This document shows, one piece after another, positions 2,290 through 51,965 of a stretch of 64,000 bases of DNA. The stretch lies in IMG/VR virus record IMGVR_UViG_3300042191_000299, positions 1 to 64,000 of that record. One strand, 5' to 3'. Origin of the DNA: a virus. Position numbers and translations under genes: made by a program. Below the pieces are notes generated by a model. The model was not told where the DNA came from, made no database searches, and saw only the letters and a list, made by a program, of their open reading frames with translations. Position 1 is the first letter of the stretch. Every line of letters begins with the position of its first letter.

Positions 2290-2631
2290 TCATTTCGTCA
2301 GTTTGTAGACGCCGATGCCCAGCCCCAACGTCGCCAGGGCCATGCCCAGGCCGAGCCAAATCTTCTCGGGAATGATACCCATCGCGGGCCCCTGCAGCGA
2401 CGGCGTCATCAGCCCTTCGCCCACCGCGCACTTGCGGGAGATGGCCGTGTGCACGGCGGCGATCTTCTTGTGCACCGCGCGCGCCAGCGACGGCTTGTTG
2501 GCGGTGGCCTGCGAATAGGCGTCGAGTCCGGCCCACGCCTGCACGATGGTCTGCTGGGCCACTTGGCAATTCCCGGCGGCCAGTGCCGCCTTCGCGTAGT
2601 TCACCGCGGCCAGGATCTCTGCTCGCGTCAC
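2290..2631 (-). CDS. hypothetical protein with C-terminal TM anchor (lysis-cassette candidate)
   Basis: GTG start overlaps the upstream stop (GTGA). C-terminal IWLGLGMALATLGLGIGVY. Confidence 0.5.
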   Translation of the reverse strand: MTRAEILAAVNYAKAALAAGNCQVAQQTIVQAWAGLDAYSQATANKPSLARAVHKKIAAVHTAISRKCAVGEGLMTPSLQGPAMGIIPEKIWLGLGMALATLGLGIGVYKLTK

Positions 2632-3095
2632 GCTTGGCTCCTGTAGTAGGCGATGCCCCCCACGACAGCTCCGGTGAGTACCAGCGCGCCGAGCCCGAAC
2701 CACAGCACCCTGCGCATCATGCGTGCGCGATCAGCCAGCAGCGTGTTCTGGCGCTGCACCGCCTCCAGCTCCTGTGGCGACAGCGCGCCCATGTGCACAG
2801 CCATCGGCCCGTCACGGCCGGTGCCACGCGGAGCCCCGACACCGCACGCGAGCATCGTCAGATCGTGCGTGTGGCCGTCACTCGGATCCGGCTGGACCTT
2901 GAAGTTTCGCACCACATGGTAGTGGCCGCTCGCCAGGTCAGTGTTCCCTGTGCCCTCTTTGTTCAACCACGCGCCGTGGTTGTGCACAGGATACATCCGC
3001 CCCGGATTCTGCGTCGTGAGCTGACACGGGAATCCGGGGGGCTGGACGGACGCGTACTTGACGGCGTCCGGATTGGGGTACTGCGTGTGGCGCAT
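2628..3095 (-). CDS. hypothetical protein, His-rich, C-terminal TM anchor
   Basis: Starts at MRHTQYP. Contains GHYHVV..DGHTHD. C-terminal VLWFGLGALVLTGAVVGGIAYY. Confidence 0.5.
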   Translation of the reverse strand: MRHTQYPNPDAVKYASVQPPGFPCQLTTQNPGRMYPVHNHGAWLNKEGTGNTDLASGHYHVVRNFKVQPDPSDGHTHDLTMLACGVGAPRGTGRDGPMAVHMGALSPQELEAVQRQNTLLADRARMMRRVLWFGLGALVLTGAVVGGIAYYRSQA

Positions 3096-4390: not shown

Positions 4391-4440
4391 CTACCCCATA
4401 AAAAGCCGCGTCTTATTCAGCTATTGAGTTGTCAATCGCG
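4391..4440 (-). promoter_or_regulatory. CRISPR leader (relatively AT-rich), homologous to the array-2 leader
   Basis: Minus strand reads ATTGACAACTCAATAGCTGAATAAGACGCGGCTTTTTATGGGGTAG. This is about 80% identical to 49527-49573 and lies in the same position relative to the first repeat. Confidence 0.65.
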
Positions 4441-4481
4441 CGAACCCCCCGAACGCCACCACCGTAGGCGGCGGCCAGCAC

Positions 4482-6170: not shown

Positions 6171-6406
6171 TTGAGTACCTCGGTTAGAAGGGTCCGGAGC
6201 GCGTCCAGGCGCGCGGTTGGAAACTCCGTGACGCACTCGTTGCGTGAGATTTCGTGGTCTGTGCTGCACAGCCGTCGCAGCGACCGGAAGATGCGGCACG
6301 CGGCGACCTTCACTTGGTCACGCGTGCCGTGGCGCAGATCGTCCATGTCACCAGCGATCAACTCCTCGCGCACGCCGAGCTGGTCGAGCAGCTGCGCGAG
6401 CGTCAC
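6167..6406 (-). CDS. small helical protein, paralogue 3 of 3 (C-terminal LLTEVLK)
   Basis: 79 aa. ATGA overlaps at both ends. Shares its C-terminal motif with the two upstream ORFs. Confidence 0.6.
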   Translation of the reverse strand: MTLAQLLDQLGVREELIAGDMDDLRHGTRDQVKVAACRIFRSLRRLCSTDHEISRNECVTEFPTARLDALRTLLTEVLK

Positions 6407-8268: not shown

Positions 8269-8955
8269 TCACCCACATTTCGAAACCGGGGATGGTCGGG
8301 AGGGTCGTGTCTGCATAACGGCGGACAGCGTGGTCGCGATGCGCTCGTGTACCTCCTCGGGGGTACCGTGACCATCGACCGTCACCCATCGGCCAGGCGC
8401 GCCGGGTGCTGCCCAGATGCGCTTGTAGTTCTCCCGGACAGTGCGCTGCTTTGCGCGGTCCTTCTCGTATCGATCGCGCAGCGTCGGGCGCCGGCGCAGG
8501 GCCTCCTCTTCCGTCACGTCGATGAAGATGTTGATGGCGGGATCGGGTAGGCACGCCTGGACACGCCACAGCCACTCCTCCGAAAGACCGTCGGCGCTGC
8601 CGTACGCTACAGCAGAGGGTTTCCAGCGATCCAGCACCAAGTGACTGCCTTGGGCCGTGCTGAAGTGAATCACAGGCGCGGCAGCCGCCTTGTCCGCCAG
8701 CATCAAGCGCTGAAAAACCAGCGCATCGTCCGGCGCGCGCGTGTAGCCTTTTCCCTCGTTGCCGAATCCCCCCGGAGTGGACACGGCCGTGAGCTGCGTG
8801 CGCCCCTGCAGATGGTCGAGGATCGCTTTGCCCGTAGGTGTGTCGTAACGAGGAAAAGCCAGCGGTGGCTTAAGCGGAGAACACAGCTTCTGCGCCAACA
8901 GCTCCGCTTGGGTGTGCTTCCCCACGGCATCACCGCCTTCGATGCAAATCAACAT
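8269..8955 (-). CDS. tmk: thymidylate (dTMP) kinase
   Basis: Starts at MLICIEGGDAVGKHT (P-loop). DRW/AYG lid-region pattern. Confidence 0.8.
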   Translation of the reverse strand: MLICIEGGDAVGKHTQAELLAQKLCSPLKPPLAFPRYDTPTGKAILDHLQGRTQLTAVSTPGGFGNEGKGYTRAPDDALVFQRLMLADKAAAAPVIHFSTAQGSHLVLDRWKPSAVAYGSADGLSEEWLWRVQACLPDPAINIFIDVTEEEALRRRPTLRDRYEKDRAKQRTVRENYKRIWAAPGAPGRWVTVDGHGTPEEVHERIATTLSAVMQTRPSRPSPVSKCG

Positions 8956-9725: not shown

Positions 9726-10751
9726 TTATCGATACATCTTGTGCATGCGGTGCTCGCGCTGCGCGTCGCCGGCACCGCCGGTGAAGCGTTGATGCGCCAC
9801 ACCCATCCGCGTGACTGGCCGGTTGACGAGCTGCTCGGCGGTGGCGCGTCTAGCCGCCTCGATAGTCCGATTGAGGTACCGCGCGCCGGTGGTGCGGTAC
9901 TTCATCAGCCCCACCGGCTGCGTCTCGTAGACCCAGTGGATCATTTCGTCAGGCACACCGGCACTGACAAGTGCGCACACCACTACCCAGTCGGCCTCGC
10001 TGCGCGTGACCTGGCGCTCGGAGTAGGCGTTCTTCTCCCCACTGTCGATGATGTCGATCACTCCCGGCGGGAGGCGCTGGCGCAGCTCCAGCCAATCCAC
10101 CGGCGGGTCCACCGGCACGGGGATCCCCTCCTGTGGCTGGCGCGCCGGCCCTGCCCCCAGTCGATCGAGCGCCAGATCGATCTGGTCGATGGTGTACGTA
10201 CGCTCCGGGTTGACCGACGTGAGGTAGCACCAGCTTGGCGGCGTCTTCCAGTTCACCGTGCCGGCGAGGCGCAAGATCCGGTTCACATTGAAAATGCAGT
10301 CCGAACCGGTGTACTTGCACAGCCGTTCCCAAACGACTTTCGCCTTCGTCGGGTCGGCCGGCTCGGACAGACGCAGATACATGTGCGCGCCATTTCCCGA
10401 TGAGCCAACGGCTGTCGGTGGAATGCCGCCTGCGGCCAGGCGCTTCTCCACCTCGCCGATGGACGTGCGCTCCGGCTGCAGGTCCAGCCCCACCGTCGAC
10501 ACGAATGGCACGTCGTGCTCGAAGCCGGTCATGGCTTTTCGTGGATTGACCGACACGAACGCGGAGAACCGCTCGGCGTTGATCTCCAAGGCGTATTCCG
10601 CCGCCACGTCCGCAGTGAAAAAGTAGCGCTTGATCGGCTTGCGCTTCGGTGCAAGCCCCGTGATCTCGATGAGCGTCGCGGCGGTAGGCACAGGGTGCAG
10701 CAGCTCGATGAGCGTGCGCGCGTGGTGCAGCTGCACTTCCGCTTGCGTCAC
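9726..10751 (-). CDS. DNA primase-like protein (plasmid/phage RepB-prime-like family, tentative)
   Basis: GTG overlaps the upstream stop. SSGNGAHMYLRL and NRILRLAGTVNWK motifs. C-terminal SRSEADWVVVCALVSAG helix bundle. Confidence 0.5.
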   Translation of the reverse strand: MTQAEVQLHHARTLIELLHPVPTAATLIEITGLAPKRKPIKRYFFTADVAAEYALEINAERFSAFVSVNPRKAMTGFEHDVPFVSTVGLDLQPERTSIGEVEKRLAAGGIPPTAVGSSGNGAHMYLRLSEPADPTKAKVVWERLCKYTGSDCIFNVNRILRLAGTVNWKTPPSWCYLTSVNPERTYTIDQIDLALDRLGAGPARQPQEGIPVPVDPPVDWLELRQRLPPGVIDIIDSGEKNAYSERQVTRSEADWVVVCALVSAGVPDEMIHWVYETQPVGLMKYRTTGARYLNRTIEAARRATAEQLVNRPVTRMGVAHQRFTGGAGDAQREHRMHKMYR

Positions 10752-11242: not shown

Positions 11243-12858
11243 CAGTAGAGCTTCCCGATGTAGACGGCGGCCATCTCTTGTGCACGCGTGATCGCCGTAT
11301 ACGTCCAACGACGGCCCTCTTCTTCGTCGAAGCGCACCGACGGCTCCACGACAATGAACACCCACGGCCACTGCGACCCCTGGCTTTTGTGTGCCGTCCA
11401 CGCGTACCCGAAATTCGCGTGGATGTGTGGCGCCACGGTGTCGCCGGCAGTGAAGTGGTTGTTCACGCGCGCCCAGCGGTTCGCGGCATCTACGATCCCG
11501 CGCTGTCCTACCGTGAGGCGTCCATGCAGTTCTTCAAGCGACAGCGTCAGCGGAACGCCACCCAGGTGTGTCGCGCCAAAACGGGTGTCTTCGTGCACGC
11601 CCTTCCAGCGGTCGGTCACACGCTCGAATCCCTCGGGCGAATCGTCCCACCCCTCGAACGTGAACGTCTCGCCGTTCATCAGCCCTGCATCGTAGTTGTT
11701 CTTCATGACCAGCAGCGGCTCGCCCACCTGCGGCATCTCGTTGTAGATGCCCAGCGTGGCGCGGATGCCCGCGTTCAGGTGAAAGCGCGTCTGGTTGCGG
11801 TGGCAGATGGTCACGCCACCGTTCTGGTGCGTTGCCACGGTGATCCCCGGAATCTGCCCATACTCTGCACGCGGTAGCTCCCGCAGTGCATTTATCCCTG
11901 CGCCGTTGCGCAGCGCCATCGACGCGCGGATCACTGGCGATCCTTGCGCCTGGCGGAGCACCTCGGTCATCTCCACACGCTCGGCGCCCAGACCTTCGGC
12001 AAAGGCCGGCAGCAAGATCGAAAACGGTGGCGCGTTGGGCGGCTGCACGGGGGGCAGCTGGAAGCCGTCGCCGATGCACACCAGCTTAAGGTCGAGCTGC
12101 TTGCACGTCAGGTAGACGTCCTTCCACACGTCGGGGCCCACCATGGATGCCTCGTCAAGCAGCACCAGGCGCGACTTGGTCACCGGGATCTCTTCGAGCG
12201 GCCGCCGCGTGAACTTGGTGACGCCTGTCTTGTCGTCCTCCTTGGGCTTGTATAGCCACCGGTGGATGGTGCTGGCGTTGAGCCCGGTGGCCTCGCGGAT
12301 GCGCAGCGCCGCCTTGCCAGTGGGTGCGATGGCCGTGGGCGTTCCGTATTCCTGCTCGAACACGCGCAGCATGCTGGTTTTGCCCACGCCGGCAAAGCCC
12401 GCCAGGATCGCCAGGGCATGACCTCGAACCGACATGCACCGCTGCACCATCGCGCGGCCACGTTCCTGATCGCTCGTGAGCGTGAACGGCAACACGACGG
12501 GCTTTGGTGGTTCCGGGGGCGCCATCGCCGCGTATCGATCTTGGATCGCCGTGGCCATCTCCTGCTGCACCATGCGCCGGCTGAACCGTTGATCGATGCG
12601 CTTGGCCAGCTCGGTGAACCCCAGCGTGTGCAGGCGGAACATCGACGAGCGTAGCGCCACGTAGGTGAGCGTGTTGGTGGCGATGTCGTGGAGGATGGTG
12701 TTCGCTTCCGTTCGCGCCTCGGCAGGAACGGCCTCGGGGTTGTAGCCGTACTGCTGGCGGCAGTCGGGCCCGATGGCCAACTCGATCGACAACGCATCGG
12801 TGAGGGGACGGCCACACGCGGCGCAGTTGGTGGTGGCGAATTGCGCGATGACGGTCAT
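11242..12858 (-). CDS. RecD/Dda-like superfamily 1 DNA helicase with N-terminal Cys motif
   Basis: Walker A GFAGVGKTS, Walker B LVLLDEASMV, C-terminal YAWTAHKSQGSQW. N-terminal CAACGRPLTD..GPDCRQ (DUF6011-like). Confidence 0.85.
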   Translation of the reverse strand: MTVIAQFATTNCAACGRPLTDALSIELAIGPDCRQQYGYNPEAVPAEARTEANTILHDIATNTLTYVALRSSMFRLHTLGFTELAKRIDQRFSRRMVQQEMATAIQDRYAAMAPPEPPKPVVLPFTLTSDQERGRAMVQRCMSVRGHALAILAGFAGVGKTSMLRVFEQEYGTPTAIAPTGKAALRIREATGLNASTIHRWLYKPKEDDKTGVTKFTRRPLEEIPVTKSRLVLLDEASMVGPDVWKDVYLTCKQLDLKLVCIGDGFQLPPVQPPNAPPFSILLPAFAEGLGAERVEMTEVLRQAQGSPVIRASMALRNGAGINALRELPRAEYGQIPGITVATHQNGGVTICHRNQTRFHLNAGIRATLGIYNEMPQVGEPLLVMKNNYDAGLMNGETFTFEGWDDSPEGFERVTDRWKGVHEDTRFGATHLGGVPLTLSLEELHGRLTVGQRGIVDAANRWARVNNHFTAGDTVAPHIHANFGYAWTAHKSQGSQWPWVFIVVEPSVRFDEEEGRRWTYTAITRAQEMAAVYIGKLY

Positions 12859-16804: not shown

Positions 16805-17095
16805 CTACTCCGTGTGCTCTGCGTCGTCTGCGAGACTGGCGAATTTCTCGCGTTCGACGATTCGCTCGGCGAGCTGCGTTGCCACCTCTGGTGGTTGCAC
16901 TGGTGGCGGCATTGGTGGCCCCTTCGCACGCGCCAACCGTTCCTGCGCAGCAGTGCCCACGCCGATCAGGTCATCGGCGTGGTGTTTGATCGTCTGCCAG
17001 TCGGCTTCGTCGACCGGACTCTCCGCGGCGAGCAGAAACTCAGAGAGTACCCGGTCGAGCCGGCCGATCATCGCGTCGAAAGCGTCGCGGGTCAC
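16805..17095 (-). CDS. hypothetical protein
   Basis: GTG start 3 nt after the upstream stop. 96 aa, helical composition. Confidence 0.5.
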   Translation of the reverse strand: MTRDAFDAMIGRLDRVLSEFLLAAESPVDEADWQTIKHHADDLIGVGTAAQERLARAKGPPMPPPVQPPEVATQLAERIVEREKFASLADDAEHTE

Positions 17096-27091: not shown

Positions 27092-27128
27092 ATCGCACCA
27101 ACGAAGCCGGTGCGCAGGCGCGATTCAC
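27092..27128 (-). repeat. solitary CRISPR repeat unit (sense to local transcription)
   Basis: Minus strand reads GTGAATCGCGCCTGCGCACCGGCTTCGTTGGTGCGAT. 27 consecutive nt are identical to the array-2 repeat. It fills the gap between the HerA-like stop (inside the unit) and the next start. Confidence 0.8.
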
Positions 27129-28882
27129 TGTTCAAGAAACACCTCGGATAGGTTGAGCGTCTCGCCGTCATCGCCGATCAGCTCCAGGTCACGCAACGAT
27201 TTGATCGTGCGTCCAAACGACGAGCTGGTCTGGCTATAGCCCGTCATTGCCGACAATTTCTCGCGTGACAGTGCATTCGCACCATGGATAGCGTTGTCGT
27301 AGATCGCCGATAGCATCCCAGCTTCCTGCGGCTGCAGTGTGCACATCCAATGGTCCAGCAGCGCACGCCCCGTGGGCAACGGCGCGGTCGTGCCGGCCAG
27401 CTCTCGGCCAGCGGTGGTGATCGTGTAGCGCGCCGGCGTCCCTTCGATGAGCCCGTCTTGCGCGAGCCGCGCGATGTTGCGGGGGAAGGCGCTCGACGAG
27501 CGGCGATAGCCGGACAACGTCGAGATTTGTGAAGCGCTGGCGGACCCCCGCTGCGCCACCACCGCCAGCAGCTCCCGCGCATATTGGGGGAGGGTGCCTT
27601 CGACTTCGGGCCGTCGCGCAGGCGCCGAATTCGCCTTTGCCAACATGCCGTTCATGTTGGGGGTGTTGCGTATCTTGCCAGGATCAAAGACGCCGTTGTG
27701 CTGGTTCAGCGGTACGGGCTGCGGCGCCGTTCGTCGGACCGCGGTCAGCAGCTCGTTCAGCTGCACGGACAGCTTCTGCTGCGTCGGCGCCAGGCGATCC
27801 GCCCAGCTCTCGATCACTTTGACCATCGCGGCGCTGAACGCGTTTTCGCTCTTGGCCAGCGACTCCACGATCTTCTCAATGCGCGCCAGCTCGGCCGGCT
27901 TCACCGCCGCCACTTCCTTCGCCGGCGCCGCAACGGCCGCGGGCTTCTTCGTCAACTCGCGCTCCAGCTCGGCGACGCGCGCACGTAGTGTTTTGGGGTC
28001 GCTGGCCTTGGCCTCCTCGATGGTGGCTGCCATCGCCGTGCGCACCTCGTCGAGATCAATTGGCGCCAGCTTGTGGCTTTGCGTGTCGGATCCATCGGGC
28101 GTCGCCGACGCGTCGAACGTTCGCTTCTTGCGGAACACCGTCCGCACGGCGCCCGACTCTTCCCATGCGATCATCGTTCCCTTGGGCAAATCGGGCAACA
28201 GCTTAATCATGTCGTCCGATGCACCGTTGGCATTCGCCCATCCGTCGATGCGCTTGATGTCCTCTGGCGCCTTGAGCTTGCCTGTGAAGATTTTGTCCGA
28301 AAGGTTGAGCGCCCCCTTGTTCACCTCCGCCGCACGCTGTGAAACGATGGTCCCACCGATGCCGTAGTTGCGGCCGATCTTCCACAGGCGCTTCGTCGCC
28401 CCTGCCATCGGCGCCTGGGCCGCGTCGACGAACTGCGGAAAGAATTCGTGGCCTTCCTCGAAGACCATGTGCAATGGCGATTTGTTGCGCTTCTTGAGAT
28501 TGAAAACCTCGCGGCACAGATCGGTGGCGAAACGGCGCTGCTCACCCTCGGTGAAGTCGCTGATATCGAGCACGCACGACATTCGATGGTTCACGATGAG
28601 CGACGCGACCAGCGCACCGCCTGTTGGCTCAAGCGGCACGTCGCCATGCAGGCCTCCAAACACAGGAACGTCGTAGCCCTTCGACTTGCCGTTGGTCGAC
28701 AGGCGCAGTCCGTACCAGGACCCGACGGGATCCACGACCACCACCTGCACGCCTGCATCGAGAAACTCTTCGACCAGCACGCCGGCGGCGTAGCTTTTCC
28801 CTGTGCCGCGCGTGCCCAGGAAGGCGTACGTGGACGTCGCGGCGTTCTTCGGCAGCGTGACGTCGTGCGACAAGCGGTACAT
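27125..28882 (-). CDS. HerA/FtsK-like (DUF87-type) P-loop ATPase with two C-terminal winged-helix repeats
   Basis: Walker A FLGTRGTGKSY, Walker B-like HMVFEEGHEF. C-terminal repeats ...ISTLSGYRRSSSAFPRNIARL and LSAMTGYSQTSSSFGRTIKSL. Confidence 0.7.
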   Translation of the reverse strand: MYRLSHDVTLPKNAATSTYAFLGTRGTGKSYAAGVLVEEFLDAGVQVVVVDPVGSWYGLRLSTNGKSKGYDVPVFGGLHGDVPLEPTGGALVASLIVNHRMSCVLDISDFTEGEQRRFATDLCREVFNLKKRNKSPLHMVFEEGHEFFPQFVDAAQAPMAGATKRLWKIGRNYGIGGTIVSQRAAEVNKGALNLSDKIFTGKLKAPEDIKRIDGWANANGASDDMIKLLPDLPKGTMIAWEESGAVRTVFRKKRTFDASATPDGSDTQSHKLAPIDLDEVRTAMAATIEEAKASDPKTLRARVAELERELTKKPAAVAAPAKEVAAVKPAELARIEKIVESLAKSENAFSAAMVKVIESWADRLAPTQQKLSVQLNELLTAVRRTAPQPVPLNQHNGVFDPGKIRNTPNMNGMLAKANSAPARRPEVEGTLPQYARELLAVVAQRGSASASQISTLSGYRRSSSAFPRNIARLAQDGLIEGTPARYTITTAGRELAGTTAPLPTGRALLDHWMCTLQPQEAGMLSAIYDNAIHGANALSREKLSAMTGYSQTSSSFGRTIKSLRDLELIGDDGETLNLSEVFLEQ

Positions 28883-28920: not shown

Positions 28921-30141
28921 TCAACTGGTGGGCTTCATGCCAGGAAACTGGCGATGGAATTCCGCGTGCGTTTGTTCGAGCCACGTGCCAGTCATCTGCG
29001 CGGCCACCTCGGGGGGAACCGGCGGGCCCCCCTCGTCGGGCTTTCGCCACGACCAATCGTCTGGTGGCGGGGGCGCGGCGATCGGAATCGGCACGGCGCC
29101 CGAGTCCTCCACAGGCGGCACCAACGTCAGCGCCAGCCCGGACAACTCGCGATCACGCTGCGCACGCGCCTCCTCCGGGGATGGCCAGTGCGCCGGCGGC
29201 GCGGCGATCGGTGGTGAGGCTTGCACCACGTTGCTCGGCGCCACCCCTTCCGGTACATCCACCACGCCGTAGTGGGCCAGCACGGCGGCGAAGCCTGCCG
29301 GATCTGCCGCACGTGAGATCACCACGTGGTCCACGCGCCGCTCGGCCAGGCGCTGCCGAAACGCGTTCACGTCCGCGGTGACCGAGCCCTGCAGTGGCAC
29401 GAGGGCGTCGGAAAGTGGGCTTGGTACCGTCAGCGCCACCACCGACATGGCCTTGCTGGTGGTGCGCGCCGGTACGTTGTGGTCGGGGGGCAACGCCCCG
29501 AAGAGTAGCGCCTCAGGGGGCATGCGCCCAATGTCGCGGTGGCCCCACGCGTCCTCGAACGCGGCCGCCAGCACCTCAAGCTGCTCGGTGGTCAGCTCCA
29601 GGCACGTGCACTCGATGCACGGATCTTGGTGTGACGGAACGTCCTTCGCGGGAACGTGCAGCGTCCAGCGATCGGTGGGCACCCAGTCGAACCGCGCGGG
29701 GATGGGCGTTGCCGTCTTGGTCGCTGCATCCAGGCGCACGCTCGCGTACGCCAGCAGGCGCGGCACGAACTTGTTGGGCGATGGCGGCACGATGGCGTGG
29801 CAGCGGAGCCGGCCGACCTGCTTTGCGTCCAGCAGTAGCACCCGCCGCACAGGCCGGACACGGGCCTCGTAGGATTCGGAGATCCAGCGCCAGTAGGCCC
29901 GCACGGAGGTCAGCTCGGCGACGTTGGCGATGGTGGTGGGCTGGGCGGCGCGCCCTTTGCTGATCGAGCGGGCTGCGGTGCGGGCGTAGAGCGCAGCAGT
30001 CGCCGGGGACACGCCACGGGCCATCAACGACGCGATGAACCCCTTGGCGTTCAGGTACTGCGTGGTGCTGGTGGCGACCGTGACCACGGCATCGCCGATT
30101 CGGTACTGCACGGCTGCGTCTGATTTTGGCCTGCGTCCCAT
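28921..30141 (-). CDS. hypothetical protein, Pro-rich C-terminus
   Basis: 406-aa ATG ORF. The N-terminus faintly resembles an integrase SAM-like domain, but no catalytic R..HxxR..Y was seen. Confidence 0.55.
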   Translation of the reverse strand: MGRRPKSDAAVQYRIGDAVVTVATSTTQYLNAKGFIASLMARGVSPATAALYARTAARSISKGRAAQPTTIANVAELTSVRAYWRWISESYEARVRPVRRVLLLDAKQVGRLRCHAIVPPSPNKFVPRLLAYASVRLDAATKTATPIPARFDWVPTDRWTLHVPAKDVPSHQDPCIECTCLELTTEQLEVLAAAFEDAWGHRDIGRMPPEALLFGALPPDHNVPARTTSKAMSVVALTVPSPLSDALVPLQGSVTADVNAFRQRLAERRVDHVVISRAADPAGFAAVLAHYGVVDVPEGVAPSNVVQASPPIAAPPAHWPSPEEARAQRDRELSGLALTLVPPVEDSGAVPIPIAAPPPPDDWSWRKPDEGGPPVPPEVAAQMTGTWLEQTHAEFHRQFPGMKPTS

Positions 30142-30203: not shown

Positions 30204-30302
30204 CCGTGCGCGCGCGCGATTCAACTATCACATTTTTTAGGTCGGTTTTTACCCTAAACATTGACCTAAAAAATGTGATAGTTGAATCGCGCGCGCGCAC
30301 GG
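30204..30302. repeat. perfect 40-bp inverted repeat with a 19-nt non-palindromic spacer
   Basis: 30204-30243 (ccgtgcgcgcgcgcgattcaactatcacattttttaggtc) is the exact reverse complement of 30263-30302. Confidence 0.95.
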
Positions 30303-30372: not shown

Positions 30373-30401
30373 TTGACACGCGCCGCGCGTTGCCGCATCA
30401 T
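30373..30401 (+). promoter_or_regulatory. candidate sigma70-like promoter giving a near-leaderless HTH mRNA
   Basis: TTGACA-N17-CATCAT, ending 6 nt before ATG 30408. Confidence 0.4.
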
Positions 30402-30407
30402 TTCGCC

Positions 30408-30656
30408 ATGTCGCCCGCCGAAAACGCGCCCAATCCAATCGGGGCGGAGATCCGCCGGCTGCGTGACTCGCTCGGGATGACCCTGCAGGATTTCGGGCGC
30501 CACGTGGAGATCCCGTGGCAGACGATCCAGGCGTATGAAGGCGGTCGCGCGGTGCCGCCGGCGACGCGGCTGCTGCTGATCATGCACGCCACCCGGCGCG
30601 CGAAGGAACCGTTCCGCGTGGCGCCGGTAGCTCGCGCTGTGGCGTTGGCGGCTTAG
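30408..30656 (+). CDS. XRE/Cro-CI family helix-turn-helix regulator
   Basis: IGAEIRRLRDSLGMTLQDFGRHVEIPWQTIQAYEGG. The listed TTG at 30390 is an alternative start. Confidence 0.8.
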   Translation: MSPAENAPNPIGAEIRRLRDSLGMTLQDFGRHVEIPWQTIQAYEGGRAVPPATRLLLIMHATRRAKEPFRVAPVARAVALAA

Positions 30657-30685
30657 AGCCTGCGCACCGGCTTTGTTGGTGCGAC
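30650..30685 (+). repeat. solitary CRISPR repeat unit (sense to local transcription)
   Basis: AGAGCCTGCGCACCGGCTTTGTTGGTGCGAC matches the array-2 repeat at 30/31 positions. The HTH stop codon TAG lies at unit positions 5-7. Confidence 0.8.
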
Positions 30686-39203: not shown

Positions 39204-39221
39204 CTGCCAGTTATACAGCAA
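39204..39221. promoter_or_regulatory. 18-bp quasi-palindromic motif, copy 1 (CTGCCAGTTATACAGCAA)
   Basis: One of 5 near-identical intergenic copies (NTGC-CAGTTANNNN-RCAR). On the minus strand it contains TATAAC about 30 nt upstream of ATG 39186. Confidence 0.6.
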
Positions 39222-39233
39222 TCGGCGCGCCGT

Positions 39234-39287
39234 GCGCAATACTTGAGCGCAATACGTTATGTATTGCGTCAGTGTGGTGGTTTTGCG

Positions 39288-39292: not shown

Positions 39293-39960
<668 letters not shown>

Positions 39961-42038: not shown

Positions 42039-42056
42039 TTGCCAGTTATACAGCAA
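42039..42056. promoter_or_regulatory. 18-bp quasi-palindromic motif, copy 2 (TTGCCAGTTATACAGCAA)
   Basis: Minus strand reads TTGGCG-N17-TATAAC upstream of ATG 42021. Confidence 0.6.
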
Positions 42057-42241
42057 CTGGTATGCCGCGCCAAGTTCCTCGATCGTGGCCACTTCGCAGC
42101 ACCGGTGTGCCGTTTTGGTGTCGCCGGATCGCCACACCCGATGCACACGCGCCACACACGTCGCGGTGCGCCATGAAGAAAAAGCTTGTCAGCCCACCTG
42201 TTAGTCGTGGTATGAGTTTGGCATCGAGGGCTTGATGCCGA

Positions 42242-44788: not shown

Positions 44789-44970
44789 AGCCTCTCGTCA
44801 AAAAGCTCGAACGCGCGCTGGCCAAGCTGCCGGGCACGGAGGGCCGCAAGATCGCCCGCCGCAATGCCCGGCAGCGCGTTCTGGCTGCACTCCGTGCCGT
44901 GCGGGCACACGTGGACCGTGAATTCCCTGCGATCGTGGCGCGTAAGGGGGGGCACACATCGTACGGTTGA
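44785..44970 (+). CDS. hypothetical small basic protein
   Basis: 61 aa. GTGA overlap with the VWA gene stop. Confidence 0.45.
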   Translation: MKPLVKKLERALAKLPGTEGRKIARRNARQRVLAALRAVRAHVDREFPAIVARKGGHTSYG

Positions 44971-45199
44971 CCAGCGCCTAGCACACCTCAGGCGCAAGGG
45001 GTGGGTCCAAAAAGACGCCCTCTTTGCGGCGCGCTACGCTGCGGTAGGTGTGCCCATTCGTAATATCGGGGGCGACCTGTTCGTGCCTGGTTGGGCCCAC
45101 GCGATCGGCTACAACAAACAGACCGAGCTGCGCGCCGCCAAGCGCTCTGTGAAGGCGCGCAAGGCAGCGCTCGCGACGGCAGCCCTTTTGCAGACGTAA
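44918..45199 (+). CDS. hypothetical protein (start uncertain)
   Basis: Frame of the listed ORF 44864-45199. The first plausible start is GTG 44918, overlapping the previous ORF. Its stop lies inside the solitary repeat. Confidence 0.4.
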   Translation: MNSLRSWRVRGGTHRTVDQRLAHLRRKGWVQKDALFAARYAAVGVPIRNIGGDLFVPGWAHAIGYNKQTELRAAKRSVKARKAALATAALLQT

Positions 45200-45229
45200 G
45201 AGCCTGCGCGCCGGCTTCGAAGGCGCGAC
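45194..45229 (+). repeat. solitary CRISPR repeat unit (sense to local transcription)
   Basis: GAGCCTGCGCGCCGGCTTCGAAGGCGCGAC. Paired A>G / T>C changes keep the hairpin CGCGCC/GGCGCG. The stop codon TAA lies at unit positions 4-6. Confidence 0.75.
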
Positions 45230-46540: not shown

Positions 46541-47203
46541 ATGCGCTATCTGCTGTTCGTGTTGGTGCTCGGGTGTGGTGAGACTGTCTTGCCGTTCGGT
46601 GGCGAGGAACCATGGAGTATAGGCGGCGCGGGCACCGGCGGCGCGACGGCGCCGACTGGTGGCGTGGGCAGTGGCGGCGGCGGCGTCGCTACCGGTGGTA
46701 GCGGTACAGGCGGCGCAACTGGTACCGGCGGCGCTGTTATTTCAACGGGTGGCGCTGCAAGCGGGGGCGCACAAGCTGCGACGGGTGGCGTGCCTGGTAC
46801 AGGCGGCGCAGCGAATGGTGGCGCTGCAAGTGGCGGAGCACCTTCGACGGGCGGCGCGCCTGCAACGTCAACAGGTGGCGCTTCGACAGGCGGTGCCTCT
46901 GGGACCGGCGGCGCCCCCAGCATGGCCCGTCCGTGCGAAGGGTTTTGCTCTCCGCCAGTGACCGTCCCTCCCGGGATGAACTCCGGAGCGCTAGGCACGG
47001 GTCGTGGCTGCTACGAGGTGATCGGCACTATTACTGCGGTGGTGTGCGGAAACTTCATTGCTCCGCGGACGCTGTACAATTCAGGCATCCCATTGAACTG
47101 CAACAGTTCGGCCACACCAGCAGCAGGTACACAGCGGAACGGCGGATACTGCTTTACGGCTCCGGAGGGCGCGGGCCCGGACGCGTATTTCACGACGTAT
47201 TAG
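46541..47203 (+). CDS. lipoprotein with Gly/Thr/Ala-rich (TGG)n linker and Cys-containing C-terminal domain
   Basis: Lipobox LVLGC. Long GGA(T/S)GG repeats. C-terminal domain has 6 Cys. Confidence 0.7.
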   Translation: MRYLLFVLVLGCGETVLPFGGEEPWSIGGAGTGGATAPTGGVGSGGGGVATGGSGTGGATGTGGAVISTGGAASGGAQAATGGVPGTGGAANGGAASGGAPSTGGAPATSTGGASTGGASGTGGAPSMARPCEGFCSPPVTVPPGMNSGALGTGRGCYEVIGTITAVVCGNFIAPRTLYNSGIPLNCNSSATPAAGTQRNGGYCFTAPEGAGPDAYFTTY

Positions 47204-48078
47204 GGCCCCGGTCGGACCGGCGCGTTGCGCAGCTCATGCACCAGCGTGACTGCTGGGCGCGCATCAGCGATCGTGAACCCGCGCCCAGCCAGCGTCGCCT
47301 CGTACACGCCCGTGTGCAGCTCCGCAAAGCCGTCGTTGAAATCCATCGGCTCGCCATCGATCGCCATGACACGCGTCGGCTCCCCGTGCAGTGACAACCG
47401 CCAATTCACGTTGGCGTGTTTGAGCGCCAGGAAGCCGCGCGCCTGGTTGTCCCCCCGCTCGTACATGCGGTGCTCCTCACATGGCCCGAAGAGCCACAGC
47501 AGCAGGTCGAACATGTGAACGCCAATGTTCGTGATGAGCCCACCGGAGCGTTCGACGTTGCCCTTCCAGCTGTGGGCGTACCAGCGGCCGCGGGGGGTAA
47601 CGTAGTCGAGCGTGACCCGGTGGGGGCCAGGCTGGGCGCCGAGGTACTTCTTGAGCGCGCCGATGCGGGACAGGAGGCGACACTGCAGGACGGTGTAGAC
47701 GCGCTTACCATACAGTTGCTCGTCCTCTTCTAGCGCGTCGAGGTTCCACGGCGCGAGCGTGAGCGGCTTTTCGCAGATGACGTTGGCGCCGGCCCGCAGC
47801 CCCATCTGGGCGTGCACGTCGTGCAGATGGTTGGGGGAGCATACAGTCAGCCAGTCAATGCCCTGGCCGGCGCGGCGCAGGCGGTGGAGATACCGGTCGA
47901 AGCGCTCGGGCTCCGTGAAGAAGTCAGTCTCGCGGTTGTAGCGGTCCAAGATCCCTGCGGCATCGTGCGGATCGAGTGCTGCCACAAGCGTGCCACCAAC
48001 GGCGCGGATCGCTTCGAGGTGGCGAGGGGCGACGAAGCCAGCACAGCCAGTCATGGCGAAGCGAGGAGGCGCAGTCAC
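47200..48078 (-). CDS. Gfo/Idh/MocA-family sugar-nucleotide oxidoreductase (WbpB-like)
   Basis: N-terminal RFAMTGCAGFVAPRHLEAI, then EKPL and a characteristic C-terminal domain. GTG 48078 is preferred; ATG 48054 is the alternative. Confidence 0.75.
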   Translation of the reverse strand: MTAPPRFAMTGCAGFVAPRHLEAIRAVGGTLVAALDPHDAAGILDRYNRETDFFTEPERFDRYLHRLRRAGQGIDWLTVCSPNHLHDVHAQMGLRAGANVICEKPLTLAPWNLDALEEDEQLYGKRVYTVLQCRLLSRIGALKKYLGAQPGPHRVTLDYVTPRGRWYAHSWKGNVERSGGLITNIGVHMFDLLLWLFGPCEEHRMYERGDNQARGFLALKHANVNWRLSLHGEPTRVMAIDGEPMDFNDGFAELHTGVYEATLAGRGFTIADARPAVTLVHELRNAPVRPGP

Positions 48079-48100
48079 ATCATCCACGATACTTGACGGC

Positions 48101-48118
48101 GTGCCAGTTATCCAGCAG
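48101..48118. promoter_or_regulatory. 18-bp quasi-palindromic motif, copy 4 (GTGCCAGTTATCCAGCAG)
   Basis: Lies between the divergent sugar genes and ends 1 nt before ATG 48120. Confidence 0.55.
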
Positions 48119-48119
48119 C

Positions 48120-49397
48120 ATGCGGAGCGTGTCGGATCCACTGTTTGTCGAGCTGAGGGAGAAGATCACGCTGCGCACCGCGCGCGTCGTAGTAGTGGGC
48201 GGAGGATACGTGGGACGGCCGCTGGCTGATGCGTGCGTGGGCGCCGGTTTCCACACGACCGTCTACGATACAAACGAATCTAAGTGCGCGGAGCTGCGCG
48301 CGGTGAACCATCGCGCCGTGACCGTCTCCGCCGTTCTCCGCAGCGCTGATGTGGTGGTGATCTGCGTCCCCACGCCGCTCAACAAGACGAAGGACCCCGA
48401 CAATACGCACGTGCTGGCGGTGGCCGAAGAGCTGCTGGATAACGCGCACGCACCTCGCCTGGTGATTCTTGAAAGCACAACGTTTCCTGGCTTCACACGC
48501 CAGGTGTTTGCCCCGAAGCTGCATCTGTCTATTGCCAACCGTGACTTCGTCGCCTTCTCGCCAGAGCGCACCGACCCCGGCAACGCCGAATACAATATCA
48601 GCAACACGCCGAAGATTGTGGCAGGTGCGGACGAGGAAAGCGCTGGGCTGGCGACGGCGTTCTACGAAGCATTCGTGGAACGCAAAAACGTCGTCCAGGT
48701 CAGCTCCACTGACACAGCCGAGATGGTCAAGCTGCTGGAGAACACTTTCCGCGCCGTGAACATTGGCCTCGTCAACGAGGTGGCGATCATGTGTCGGCAC
48801 CTCAATCTCGACGTGTGGGAGGTGATCGAGGCGGCCGCCACCAAGCCGTACGGATTCATGCCATTCTACCCGGGGCCCGGCATCGGGGGGCACTGCATTC
48901 CCGTGGACCCCCTCTACCTGTCATGGCAACTGAAGACGCTGCAGTACGATGCGCGCTTCATCCAGCTTGCCGACCAGATCAACTCGGCAATGCCGGCGCT
49001 GGTGGTGGACCGCGTGACCGAGGCTCTCAATGGTTTGGGCTTGGCGGTGCGCGATGCGAATATTCTTCTGCTCGGCGTGGCCTACAAACCGGGTGTGGGT
49101 GACGTGCGAGAGTCACCCGCGTTGGAGATTTTGGCCTGTTTTGAGAAACGCGGCGCTGCGGTAGTGTATTTTGATCGGTATGTTGAAAGTGTCACCACGA
49201 AGCGGTATGCGGTACTACCGTCGTGTCGGCGTCTGGACAGCGCCCTGTACGCAGCATGTGCCTGCGCGGTCATCGTCACGGACCACCCCGACGTGGATTA
49301 TGAGGAGATCGTGCGCAGCGTGCCGGTGACGGTGGACTGCCGGAACGCGACGAAGGCATTTCGCGCGAAGTACCCCGGGAAGGTGGTGATGCTTTGA
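48120..49397 (+). CDS. UDP-sugar 6-dehydrogenase family (WbpA/WecC-like nucleotide-sugar dehydrogenase)
   Basis: Rossmann VVVVGGGYVGRPLA, catalytic GGHCIPVDP. 425 aa from ATG 48120. Confidence 0.8.
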   Translation: MRSVSDPLFVELREKITLRTARVVVVGGGYVGRPLADACVGAGFHTTVYDTNESKCAELRAVNHRAVTVSAVLRSADVVVICVPTPLNKTKDPDNTHVLAVAEELLDNAHAPRLVILESTTFPGFTRQVFAPKLHLSIANRDFVAFSPERTDPGNAEYNISNTPKIVAGADEESAGLATAFYEAFVERKNVVQVSSTDTAEMVKLLENTFRAVNIGLVNEVAIMCRHLNLDVWEVIEAAATKPYGFMPFYPGPGIGGHCIPVDPLYLSWQLKTLQYDARFIQLADQINSAMPALVVDRVTEALNGLGLAVRDANILLLGVAYKPGVGDVRESPALEILACFEKRGAAVVYFDRYVESVTTKRYAVLPSCRRLDSALYAACACAVIVTDHPDVDYEEIVRSVPVTVDCRNATKAFRAKYPGKVVML

Positions 49398-49523
49398 TGT
49401 GCCCGCGAGCGCCGCGGTGGTGAGCCGATCTCGGGAGGCGCTCGATCACAGCAGTTTCGCGTGCTTGCACTTCGGTTGCCGTACATTCTTGGCTGGCATG
49501 AGCGCGTGAAACAGCCACCGCTC

Positions 49524-49573
49524 GAAACTGACAATCAAATAGCCGAACAAGACACGGCTTTTTCTAGTGAGCC
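49524..49573 (+). promoter_or_regulatory. CRISPR leader 2, homologous to the array-1 leader
   Basis: ACTGACAATCAAATAGCCGAACAAGACACGGCTTTTTCTAGTGAGCC aligns with the minus strand of 4391-4436. Confidence 0.65.
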
Positions 49574-49756
49574 GTCGCAGAGCCTGCGCACCGGCTTCGT
49601 TGGTGCGACCTCCAGAAGGAGGTCCTGTGTGCGGCGGTACCACCGGTCGCAGAGCCTGCGCACCGGCTTCGTTGGTGCGACCCAGGAACGACGACCAAAC
49701 GCGACTTCACGATCCGAAGGTCTCCAGAGCCTGCACACCTTGACCTCGTGCCAGTT
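49574..49756 (+). CRISPR. CRISPR mini-array 2: two identical 36-nt repeats plus one degenerate terminal unit, 2 spacers (36 and 38 nt)
   Basis: GTCGCAGAGCCTGCGCACCGGCTTCGTTGGTGCGAC at 49574 and 49646. Degenerate unit at about 49720. Spacers at 49610-49645 and 49682-49719. Orientation is opposite to array 1 on the map. Confidence 0.85.
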
Positions 49757-49765
49757 ATCCAGCAA
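49748..49765. promoter_or_regulatory. 18-bp quasi-palindromic motif, copy 5 (GTGCCAGTTATCCAGCAA)
   Basis: Overlaps the decayed end of array 2. Lies 17 nt upstream of ATG 49782. Confidence 0.55.
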
Positions 49766-49781
49766 CATCCCCGGACTGCGA

Positions 49782-51965
49782 ATGAACCTCGTCGTTCTGG
49801 ATTCCACGGCCATCGCCGGCGTCACCAAGGGGCCGGGCAGCCCCGCCTACTTCTCGCGATACCTCATCGAGCATCTGCGGCGGCAGGGCCACACGATCAC
49901 GATCTATGGCACGTTCAACGAACAGGCGTGCGCGGCAGCCGATGCGGTGTGGGCCGAGTGGTGCAACGAGCTGGCCTACGCTGCGGCAGCGAGCAATGTG
50001 TGCAAGAGGCTCATCATCCGCATGCGCGGCTACGACGTGTGGGGGCCACTGGAGCGGCTGAACTGGGCGGCGGTGGACCACCTTGTGTTCGAGAGCAATT
50101 TCATCAAAGAGCTTGTTGAGGAGCAGAGCAGCGACATCGGCGTGCAGACGCATGTGATCCCGAGCGGTGTGGACCTGGCGAACATTCCGTTTCGTGTGCG
50201 TCACCAGTCGAATGGCGCAAGTGCGACTGGAAGAGGCGGCTACCGCGACCATCCACCCGTCGTCGCTTTGGTTGCACGCGCCGTGGCAGACAAGGGATTC
50301 CAACTCGCGTTAGAATGGGCGCGCCAGACAGACATTAAGCTGCATGTGGCGGCGGCGCTTGGCGAAGCGAATCCGCGACTGATGCGCTACCTGCAGCGCG
50401 CGGCGCCCCGCAACGTGACCATCCATGACACGGTCGACACCATTCCGTGGTTGGAGTCGATCCACGCGAACTTTCTGTTGTCTGCGTCGACGTGGGAGAC
50501 GCTCGGCTACACGATCGCCGAGGCGATGGCGATGGGGATCAAACCGCTGATCCACGACGTCCCTGGTGCAGCGATGAATTGGCCGTTGTGGCTGCTGTGG
50601 CGAGACTTTGATCAGCTGAACAGCCTCATCAATGGTACGTACGATTCGCGGAGCTATCGAACCTTTGTCGCCGAGCACCTCGACGCCGCCAAGGGCTCTG
50701 CGGCATTCCAGGCGCTGCTCGAAGCGCCGAGCACCGACATGGTGAACGTCGTCGAAGTGTCCGAGCTGGCCAAGCTGGTGGTGCCGACCGAACCAGCACG
50801 GCTGGTGTTCCTGGCACCGTTGCGCGGGGGACCGGCCATTCGCGCCATTCGTCAGTACCTTGGCCACATGGGCGCGCTACGATTCTCCGCCACGGAGGGC
50901 AGGACGTTCGTCGACTTCACGCCCGGTCCAGAGCGGCGGCTACTCGCGCTCGACACGATCGTGCGGGACGACGTGGCCGGACTGCGGCGCATGCTGTTCA
51001 GTGTGCTGCCCCACGTCGACGAGATCGTGATTGGAATCGACATGCGCTCAGAGGCGGGAGATGCGCTATGGGATCTCGCAAAAGCCTACGCTGATAGGGT
51101 GCACACGTTCAACGGCGCAGACATCGACATGACCGAGGAGGCGTGGGCGGCAAACAAGATCGATTTCTCCGCTGCACGCAACCGCGGCCGCGCGCTGGTC
51201 CAGTCGCCGTGGACGCTGGTACTTGACAGTGACGAGTATCTTCGCGAGACCGTGGATCTACGCGAGCTTGTCAGCAAGGCTGGTCCGGAAGAAGGCGCCT
51301 TCAGCGTGCTGGTGGCGATCACAGACAATGGCACACCGGTGTTTGAGCAGCGCGACTTCCAACGACTCGCGCGGAGCCAATACCGCTGGACGCAGGCGGC
51401 GCACAACCAGCTGCAGTGCGCGCTGAATACGCCGCCCGCGCACATCGCCACTGTGATCGTATCCGACACCAGCTTGCGCGGCGAGGACATGGTAGAGCGA
51501 CGAAACGCACAGCGGGATCAGGGCATTGTGGATCTGGTTGCCGCCGCCGGCAAAGGGCACCTGGACGCGTTGTTTCACGTGGCGAAGCACACGGCGGCTG
51601 CCGGAGACCTGGCGAAAGCTGTGACCCTGTGCGAGGAATTCCGCGCGCGCGTTGTCCCCAACACGCGCAGAGTCGCGCAGCGACAATGGGTGGCGCTGGC
51701 ATTGGGGTTCCGTTTCGGACGAGAGGGCAACTTTGCCGAGGCAGGCCGCTGGGCATGTCGCGCGCTGCTGGATGGCGCCAGCGTGCCCGCATTTTGTCTG
51801 CTGGGCGACGCCGCGGAAGCGGAGGGCGACTTAGCTCGGGCTGTGCACTGGTATCAAGCGGCATGCGCCGTCGATTTGGATGATCGCCTGGGGTGGCCGC
51901 ACATCACGGACGCACGACACGCGCGCCTGGCTGGCCTACAAGCGGCACTCCGTGCGCAGGCGTGA
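49782..51965 (+). CDS. multidomain glycosyltransferase (GT4-like N-terminal half, GT2-like DxD domain, TPR-like C-terminus)
   Basis: ETLGYTIAEAMAMGIKPLIHD (GT1/GT4 motif). IVIGIDMRS...LVLDSDEYL (GT2). The listed longer ORF runs through the CRISPR array and is rejected upstream of ATG 49782. Confidence 0.75.
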   Translation: MNLVVLDSTAIAGVTKGPGSPAYFSRYLIEHLRRQGHTITIYGTFNEQACAAADAVWAEWCNELAYAAAASNVCKRLIIRMRGYDVWGPLERLNWAAVDHLVFESNFIKELVEEQSSDIGVQTHVIPSGVDLANIPFRVRHQSNGASATGRGGYRDHPPVVALVARAVADKGFQLALEWARQTDIKLHVAAALGEANPRLMRYLQRAAPRNVTIHDTVDTIPWLESIHANFLLSASTWETLGYTIAEAMAMGIKPLIHDVPGAAMNWPLWLLWRDFDQLNSLINGTYDSRSYRTFVAEHLDAAKGSAAFQALLEAPSTDMVNVVEVSELAKLVVPTEPARLVFLAPLRGGPAIRAIRQYLGHMGALRFSATEGRTFVDFTPGPERRLLALDTIVRDDVAGLRRMLFSVLPHVDEIVIGIDMRSEAGDALWDLAKAYADRVHTFNGADIDMTEEAWAANKIDFSAARNRGRALVQSPWTLVLDSDEYLRETVDLRELVSKAGPEEGAFSVLVAITDNGTPVFEQRDFQRLARSQYRWTQAAHNQLQCALNTPPAHIATVIVSDTSLRGEDMVERRNAQRDQGIVDLVAAAGKGHLDALFHVAKHTAAAGDLAKAVTLCEEFRARVVPNTRRVAQRQWVALALGFRFGREGNFAEAGRWACRALLDGASVPAFCLLGDAAEAEGDLARAVHWYQAACAVDLDDRLGWPHITDARHARLAGLQAALRAQA

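Follow-up and report, generated by a model that had tools for sequence, protein, structure and literature searches.

A probable orphan type V-M mini-array and dispersed repeat units in a phage genome with its own Cas12m

Cas12m is a compact RNA-guided DNA binder of interest for CRISPR interference (CRISPRi), base editing and epigenome editing. Type V-M CRISPR systems, to which it belongs, are enriched on plasmids and present in some prophages, and those characterised need no trans-activating CRISPR RNA (tracrRNA). We analysed a window of 64,000 nt, positions 1-64,000 of the IMG/VR virus record IMGVR_UViG_3300042191_000299, which carries a cas12m gene with an array beside it (array 1) and a distant second mini-array (array 2) that is the main subject here. 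The window resembles the V-M loci of plasmids and prophages (MmCas12m2, GoCas12m, PmCas12m) in its homologous effector, in a 36-nt repeat with a 3'-proximal hairpin and pseudoknot, in an array directly downstream of the effector gene and in being a mobile element without an adaptation module. It differs from them in its catalytic residues, which are D-E-D instead of the H-D-D of Cas12m2 or the N-D-D of PmCas12m, and in having the repeat scaffold at eight loci, including the orphan mini-array 45 kb off and six solitary intercistronic units.

Several other described systems share parts of this arrangement. The MvCas12m locus of myxophage MV-1 (September 2026 preprint, bioRxiv 10.64898/2026.09.14.751636), likened here by description, is similar in encoding a phage Cas12m of ~600 amino acids (aa) with D/E/D residues next to an array, with no cas1/2/4 and no spacer targets found, but it has one array of eight spacers, and a second array or solitary repeats go unmentioned. 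The mini-arrays of Saccharolobus portogloboviruses (PMC11656645) also hold one or two spacers, are virus-borne and lie away from the cas cluster, but their repeats are copied from the host, they rely on host Cas and they target related viruses, whereas the array 2 repeats match the virus's own effector and no related-virus target was found in our searches. For a comparison with such host-Cas mini-arrays, Cas12m homologues in genomes reach no more than 36% identity, and no spacer matched related loci or viral collections. RNA anti-CRISPRs (Racr; PMC10651486) are, like the six solitary units, single repeat mimics with retained fold in phage genomes, but they usually have their own promoter, show no cas association and mimic host repeats, whereas the units in the window lie right against stop codons within operons and match the Cas12m array that the phage itself carries. 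Of the traits of that class the solitary units share just the single repeat, and array 2 falls outside it, having two repeats with spacers, cas12m in the same genome and no promoter found. Finally, crRNA-like regulatory RNAs (CreA/CreTA, scaRNA and viral crlRNAs; bioRxiv 10.1101/2024.10.29.618823) likewise derive from degenerate or solitary repeats outside the main array and could supply guides for transcriptional control by a DNA-binding effector; unlike them, array 2 and the solitary units have no partial-complementarity target for their guides, and the sole match is that of array 1 spacer 2, at 17/18 positions. Taken singly, a Cas12m carried by a phage, a viral mini-array and a solitary repeat unit are all known already. 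New is that they occur together, in a phage that has its own Cas12m, a distal mini-array with a clade-typical leader in an inserted metabolic cassette, and structurally maintained intercistronic single repeats.

Array 2 contains two repeats on the plus strand, at 49574-49610 and 49646-49682, which are identical at 37/37 positions (GTCGCAGAGCCTGCGCACCGGCTTCGTTGGTGCGACC) and score 53.6 and 55 bits with a covariance model (CM) of the unit (E~2-4e-9); in the 64-kb window, sequence outside the units reaches 15 bits at best. Comparison with the homologous array 1 gives a repeat of 36 nt plus one shared C, and the two spacers (49611-49645 and 49683-49719) measure 35-36 nt and 37-38 nt; as in a CRISPR array, direct repeats of ~36 nt alternate with unique spacers of similar length. 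The first-pass annotation had proposed a second mini-array of the array 1 repeat family at this place, and the perfect repeat identity and CM scores far above noise bear this out. Array 1 itself (3921-4390, minus strand) comprises five identical 37-nt repeats (starting at 4354, 4283, 4213, 4143 and 4070) followed by two degenerate leader-distal units (3996 and 3921). The array 2 repeats share 81-84% identity with the five perfect ones of array 1 (4070-4390, GTCTCAAAAGCCTGCGCATCGGCCTTGTTGGTGCGAC), and their 30-nt core is closer to that of solitary units (29/30 to the unit at 30649, 28/30 to that at 27093) than to the five-repeat core of array 1, with just 26/30. The third unit of array 2, at 49720-49738 (GTCTCCAGAGCCTGCACAC), matches the first ~20 nt of the repeat alone (nhmmer E=0.07; CM 12.8 bits), and the sequence from 49739 on is not repeat but a 27/30 copy of 48092-48121. 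This unit had been described as decayed; by these matches it is real but partial, a repeat truncated at the junction of a 30-nt duplication. Its leader-distal position, parallel to that of the degenerate units 3996 and 3921 of array 1, is as first reported. Two contigs of Logan assembly SRR35147663 (L001 and L007) that are 100% identical to the window end inside repeats, at 4362 (array 1 repeat 1) and 49653 (array 2 repeat 2), which suggests that short-read assembly breaks at this repeat family.

The leader of array 2 (49519-49573, plus strand) starts with the motif CGCTCGAAA (49519-49527), followed by a block in common with array 1 (49527-49563). In array 1 the leader (4391-4445, minus strand) has a variant of the motif, CGCGCGA, at -52 (4437-4445), and then the block TTGACAACTCAATAGCTGAATAAGACGCGGCTTTTT (4400-4435). 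Alignment of the array 2 block, TGACAA..AATAGCYGAAYAAGACRCGGCTTTTT, with 4400-4435 gave 31 matching positions against 3 mismatched ones, with 2 gaps of one base each (29/36 when no gaps are allowed), corresponding to an identity of about 80-86%, so that the ~80% first estimated for a homologous leader holds; the local alignment score was 43 against a null mean of 14-15 (standard deviation 2-2.6, maximum 25-33). A 26-nt core of the block is found at two sites in the window, one per array and none elsewhere, where chance predicts 0. We also searched for motifs in the 80 nt upstream of the first repeat in both window arrays and in ten Cas12m-adjacent arrays from unrelated contigs, and nearly all arrays aligned have (C/T)(C/G)GCTCG(A/C)(A/G)A at -54 to -46 from the first repeat. 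Array 2 has the exact consensus, about -54 from repeat 1, and this is the only such nonamer in the window; the motif and its variants stand at matching distance in the Cas12m loci L005, L075-L079, L082, L084 and L085 (10+ loci, from unrelated metagenome-assembled genomes, MAGs). Where it lies in the cas12m reading frame it encodes RSK or RSQ (L082, L079) or ARK (L077, L075), and in L005, L092, L084 and L076 it is non-coding. Since the motif reads as RSK, as ARK or as non-coding DNA depending on the locus, the conservation appears to act at the nucleotide level.

Judged by motif and block together, the array 2 leader is a bona fide Cas12m-type leader, and it thereby fixes the polarity of the array. 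The direction that had been read from the leader side is backed by the hairpin, which the repeat carries at its 3' end like type V crRNAs, and by the effector-adjacent arrays of the window, L002, L005 and L092, in which the polarity relative to the leader is the same and effector and array share one orientation. The two arrays are on opposite strands, array 1 on the minus and array 2 on the plus strand, with 45.1 kb between them, confirming the inverted layout and the ~45 kb given earlier. No conserved RNA fold was detected in the two leader blocks (z-scores -1.07 and +0.51, with predicted folds unlike each other), and a consensus scan found no sigma-70-type promoter in either leader.

The effector gene lies at 4482-6170 on the minus strand and encodes 562 aa from the ATG at 6170, the mechanical open reading frame (ORF) reaching a GTG at 6299. 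Its product aligns almost over its full length (residues 23-560) with the Cas12m structure 23vw_A in the PDB (E=6e-66), as well as with the Cas12m2 structure 8hhl (E=6e-23), and carries the Pfam Cas12f1-like TNB domain PF07282, a C-terminal zinc ribbon. On this homology it is a Cas12m of type V-M, which makes the "miniature effector" of the first-pass annotation more precise: the effector is small, and it is a Cas12m. A 562-aa protein recorded from a 94.5-kb contig is 100% identical, the nearest relatives, at ~50% identity, likewise lie on phage-like contigs, and the closest homologues in genomes are at most 36% identical. The effector lacks the non-canonical RuvC triad (H-D-D or N-D-D, with binding but no DNA cleavage) used to define Cas12m; its triad is an intact D-E-D (D in DLGWR, E in LVLEDF, D in DQD) and is kept in its 11 closest relatives, and D-E-D clades of Cas12m have been mentioned previously (PMC10442227). 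With an intact D-E-D, the outcome of targeting could be either a transcriptional block or DNA cleavage.

To define the scaffold over the whole window we relied on the covariance model and a profile, which recover fifteen intact units at 45-55 bits (seven in array 1, two in array 2 and six solitary; eight loci), with a clear gap to the next match at 15 bits. That match, at 16983-17019, was inspected and rejected as it has no stem. Each unit consists of GCC, 2 nt, a 6-bp stem with a 9-nt loop that opens with GGC, the return stem and AC, and a 3-bp pseudoknot pairs the GCC with the loop-initial GGC. Among the ten distinct units, 98.9% of pair cells are paired, with double changes at 3/6 stem pairs (stems CGCACC/GGTGCG, CGCGCC/GGCGCG, CGCAGC/GCTGCG and CGGATC/GATCCG); this covariation was reached by 0/500 shuffles, and slid controls collapse. 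A generic descriptor (3-bp pseudoknot, 6-bp stem, loop and A) finds 14/15 units in the window against 1.6 expected by shuffling, and also fits the arrays beside Cas12m homologues in L005, L075-L079, L082, L084, L085 and L092, where the pseudoknot covaries (GCC/GGC, GGC/GCC, CCC/GGG, GCG/CGC and GGG/CCC). The fit beside Cas12m homologues and the covarying pseudoknot indicate that the scaffold is the crRNA scaffold of this clade. We considered and rejected a host element of the repetitive extragenic palindromic (REP) type: a metagenome scan with a degenerate pattern returned 66 loci with one match each and no contig with many copies, and most of these matches are due to chance because their NN positions are not complementary.

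Array 2 lies in non-coding DNA within a sugar-modification cluster. Pfam matches place it, as previously described, between a UDP-glucose/GDP-mannose dehydrogenase gene (48120-49397, plus strand, ATG 48120) and a glycosyltransferase gene (GT1+GT2; 49782-51965, plus strand), with a GFO/IDH/MocA oxidoreductase gene (47200-48054, minus strand) on the other side of the dehydrogenase. An ORF of 834 aa on the plus strand runs through array 2 into the glycosyltransferase, and it had been suspected to be an artefact upstream of ATG 49782. Four observations rule out coding through the array: the extension 49461-49781 has codon-position GC contents of 0.59/0.55/0.65 against 0.68/0.47/0.77 in the gene body, it has no Pfam match, the gene caller places the start at ATG 49782, and the glycosyltransferase homologue of L095, a related IMG/VR virus, aligns from residue 1 of the ATG-49782 protein. 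A 78-aa minus-strand ORF (49768->49533) was also discarded as an antisense reading of the repeats, the peptide APTKPVRR recurring wherever a unit is translated antisense.

The flanks of array 2 indicate how it may have arrived. A 30-nt sequence at the start of the dehydrogenase gene (48092-48121) is directly repeated (27/30) at 49739-49768, where with the motif TGCCAGTTATCCAGCA it immediately precedes the glycosyltransferase ATG, and between the two copies is a module of 1647 bp (~1.65 kb) comprising the dehydrogenase gene, the leader, two repeats and the truncated repeat. In L095, whose glycosyltransferase is 54-56% identical and whose DUF6744 protein is 39% identical to those of the window, the oxidoreductase and glycosyltransferase genes are adjacent, with neither a dehydrogenase gene nor a repeat unit between them. 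The direct repeats and this empty site suggest that array 2 was inserted with, or behind, the dehydrogenase gene. The comparison of related genomes that had been proposed as a check thus shows L095 without the array, its glycosyltransferase starting at the same Met. We also looked for a C-terminal relic of cas12m upstream of the array 2 leader, which found no support, since tblastn was no better than for random window segments and Smith-Waterman and DNA alignments gave p=0.15 and p=0.20.

The core of the 30-nt repeat, TGCCAGTTAT(A/C)CAGCA, is present at four sites in the window, including 39205-39235 and 42040-42070, each near a gene start, and L095 has a similar box, CTTGACGCCGAAGTGCCAGCACTCTAGCAT, between its oxidoreductase and glycosyltransferase genes; it is possibly a promoter or operator. 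The third-position GC of the sugar-modification genes (47200-51965) and of cas12m is 0.76-0.78, against 0.81-0.86 in the replication genes, which is compatible with a later acquisition of both. A GGC-rich tandem repeat with a 9-nt period (~33 copies) occupies 39358-39659.

Given the identical and foldable repeats, the homologous leader, the identified effector, the non-coding sequence and the cassette structure, we consider it likely that the stretch 49519-49738 represents a true orphan V-M mini-array that is served by the phage Cas12m, transcribed with the sugar operon and processed into two crRNAs. Transcription would follow the plus strand, with the array most likely forming the 3' part of the dehydrogenase transcript, since no separate sigma-70-type promoter was found. 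Each repeat is predicted to fold into the Cas12m crRNA scaffold, with its 3-bp pseudoknot, 6-bp stem, 9-nt loop and 3' AC, a fold borne out by covariation. Processing can be modelled on PmCas12m, which trims off 5' nucleotides of the repeat, cutting after repeat nt 2-3 and at guide position 17-18 (bioRxiv 10.64898/2026.03.26.714355); by analogy, the phage Cas12m would bind the scaffold and cleave at 2-3 nt inside the repeat and again at ~17-18 nt inside the guide. The two loaded crRNAs would then direct Cas12m to DNA, the probable targets being competing mobile elements or the host. As for its origin, a cassette of ~1.65 kb may have been inserted between the oxidoreductase and glycosyltransferase genes, leaving the 30-nt duplication.

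Some observations count against this interpretation. The terminal repeat is truncated by rearrangement, as would also be seen in a decaying relic, and the leader block has a weak hairpin followed by T5 that may terminate rather than promote transcription, with folding z-scores that are not significant. A consensus scan found no sigma-70-like promoter in 49200-49900. No adaptation genes were found up to 10 kb from cas12m or over the 12 kb that follow array 2 downstream, which suggests that the spacers are static. Moreover, a search of INPHARED, PLSDB, IMG/VR (with 20-nt seeds), the window and related loci totalling 790 kb gave no protospacer for either array 2 spacer.

The spacer-target search, one of the checks put forward at the outset, therefore gave no convincing target for array 2. 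In INPHARED the best result was a 22-nt match of spacer 2 to Gordonia phage Powerball (E=0.7, chance level), in PLSDB only a 23-nt match at E=0.6 was obtained, and IMG/VR returned 0 seeds for both spacers. In the related loci (790 kb) the best guide match was 16/18. Elsewhere in the window no site reached 14/18 for an array 2 guide, no 12-nt seed with at most one mismatch extended past 12/18, and self matches of the 12-nt seed alone were not above chance. Foreign protospacers with a protospacer-adjacent motif (PAM) next to them were thus not found for array 2, although the searches were limited and such absence is weak evidence. With one exception, the array 1 spacers, and likewise the sequences following the solitary units, taken as guides, had no convincing match in INPHARED, PLSDB, the window or related loci, and the solitary-unit guides had no partial-complementarity target. 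The first 18 nt of array 1 spacer 2 (4250-4282, minus strand) match 2507-2524 (plus strand) at 17/18 positions, inside a minus-strand gene (2290..2703) for a C-terminally membrane-anchored protein in the lysis region, upstream of the endolysin gene. Matches of this type have a background of 0.26% per 18-mer (P ~0.04 for the 15 guides tested), and the 5' flank of the site is GGTG, with GTG rather than YTN; the match may reflect a self-regulatory guide or chance.

The six solitary units are of interest in their own right and bear directly on what array 2 might be. On the minus strand, a pair at 840-876 and 785-821 lies just past the endolysin stop codon (785-876), a unit at 1490-1526 (47.3 bits; stem CGGATC/GATCCG, fully compensated) is ~50 nt upstream of the endolysin (Amidase_2) gene, and a unit at 27093-27128 (45.1 bits) fills the gap from the stop of a HerA-like ATPase gene (27125..28882) to the start of the next gene (27091/27073). 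On the plus strand, a unit at 30649-30685 (54.3 bits) extends over the TAG (30654-6) that ends an HTH_XRE regulator gene (30390..30656), and another at 45193-45229 (51.2 bits) covers with its 5' part the stop TAA (45197-9) of the gene 44864..45199, with a DUF6744 gene 52 nt downstream. All six are intercistronic and in the same orientation as the surrounding genes. The core of unit 840 equals that of array 1 unit 3996 (30/30), and units 840 and 785 lie 18 nt apart, the length of a mature PmCas12m guide. Only the 3' ~30 nt are conserved among them, the first ~7 nt of the repeat being variable, and these correspond to nucleotides that are disordered in the Cas12m2 structure (PMC10442227) and that PmCas12m trims away during processing. 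From the PmCas12m cut positions a single repeat should suffice for a crRNA, and by this analogy the six units are probably bound and processed by Cas12m. Intrinsic terminators were excluded as an explanation, because no unit is followed by a U-tract and scans find none at array 2. Near the unit at 30649, a palindrome at 30204-30302 (48-nt arms, 94% complementary, 3-nt gap) marks the strand switch between minus genes (28921..30141) and the HTH_XRE gene on the plus strand, and might serve as an origin or operator or as a telomere-resolution-like site.

The placement of these units raises the main alternative, namely that all of them, including those of array 2, are mainly cis-acting RNA elements, that is, sites of Cas12m binding or processing at cistron and operon boundaries that would cut the polycistronic mRNA, protect RNA ends or occlude the next ribosome-binding site (RBS), with the "spacers" as mere linkers. 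We consider this unlikely, although much of the unit set fits it. Besides their shared placement and orientation, three units start at or over a stop codon (27093, 30649 and 45193), the "guide" of unit 27093, which fills the gap to the next start codon, would cover the RBS there, units 1490 and 840/785, on the strand of array 1 and downstream of it, flank the endolysin gene, compensatory changes keep the stems paired, and no spacer has a target in the searches made. The related phage contig L002, with a Cas12m 49% identical to that of the window, adds to this: 4 kb upstream of cas12m it has a second cluster of four units (6003-6207), which opens at a stop codon, both this cluster and the effector-adjacent one at 11808-12218 are at the 3' end of a gene run and are followed by a promoter-like box, AAAAAAATACTTGACT, and their stems are heterogeneous but compensated, with irregular spacing of 48-83 nt. 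What speaks for the mini-array interpretation is the regular CRISPR geometry, with identical repeats and spacers of 33-38 nt, of array 2 and of the five repeats at the core of array 1, together with their clade-typical leader. We know of no Cas12m that acts on mRNA in such a way. Action in cis and guide function are, however, not mutually exclusive.

Other contigs add to the distribution of such units. The 6003-6207 cluster of L002 had been called as a 65-aa gene. In L084, a Nitrospirae MAG contig, a solitary repeat at 9731-9767 (plus strand), ~230 nt upstream of cas12m, is identical to the last array unit. L061, from a separate phage family, carries a window-type unit at 8487-8523 (minus strand) that is 100% conserved in five contigs (also L039, L040, L049 and L053), downstream of the major capsid gene and a strong terminator hairpin, with wholly variable sequence after GCGAC; no cas12m was found within the 12 kb examined in this family. 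L005, L092 and L095 have no extra units in the DNA available, and we found no match for the array 2 region in phages or plasmids, nor for the repeat in IMG/VR. The earlier remark that a dual-array layout is unusual for a virus can accordingly be refined: there are two arrays, but the scaffold is at eight loci, a phage Cas12m is described in the 2026 preprint and L002 has a second cluster.

A second alternative sees array 2 as a relic without function: part of a Cas12m locus that came along with the dehydrogenase cassette through illegitimate or promoter-mediated recombination and is now in decay. A terminal repeat cut off at the 30-nt duplication junction, a cassette that is absent in L095, and the lack of promoter, targets or adaptation module in the stretches searched would all be expected of such a relic, but the repeats are identical at 37/37 positions with intact pseudoknot and stem, and the leader motif and block are retained. 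In addition, diverged units elsewhere in the genome keep their fold by compensatory changes, which argues for purifying selection on the scaffold, and we regard the relic as very unlikely. Least credible is that the repeats are Racr-like decoys titrating a host-encoded Cas12m of the same clade: phages widely carry solitary units that mimic host repeats (PMC10651486) and the L061 family has its near-identical unit after the capsid gene with no cas12m within the 12 kb examined, but decoys in the window would titrate the phage's own effector, which uses the same scaffold, array 2 differs from a solitary repeat unit in having spacers and a leader, and the closest Cas12m homologues in genomes are no more than 36% identical. 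Perfect repeats, compensatory changes elsewhere and the presence of a cognate effector make both the relic and the decoy less likely than an orphan mini-array.

A broader and more speculative possibility, which we hold to be rather doubtful, is that Cas12m and the genome-wide units form a built-in gene-expression system, in which the phage's own polycistronic transcripts would be bound and processed at the units. The adjacent 17-18 nt might then serve as guides, and the 17/18 match of array 1 spacer 2 to the gene 2290..2703 might be one self-regulatory guide. If true, such a system would time or partition the expression of the lysis cassette, the HTH regulator and the sugar-modification modules.

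The natural biology of Cas12m in phages is barely described, and the genome analysed here has one phage Cas12m and more than one array. As a practical outcome, the leader motif together with the pseudoknot-stem descriptor can be used to find and orient V-M arrays. In our view the dispersed solitary repeats are more interesting than array 2 itself: the scaffold has been copied to intercistronic sites and kept foldable there by compensatory mutation, which suggests selection for Cas12m recognition outside canonical arrays. If the units are processed, they would be natural single-repeat guide modules embedded in mRNAs, and would offer a direct route to asking what use a virus makes of a CRISPR effector whose action may stop at DNA binding.

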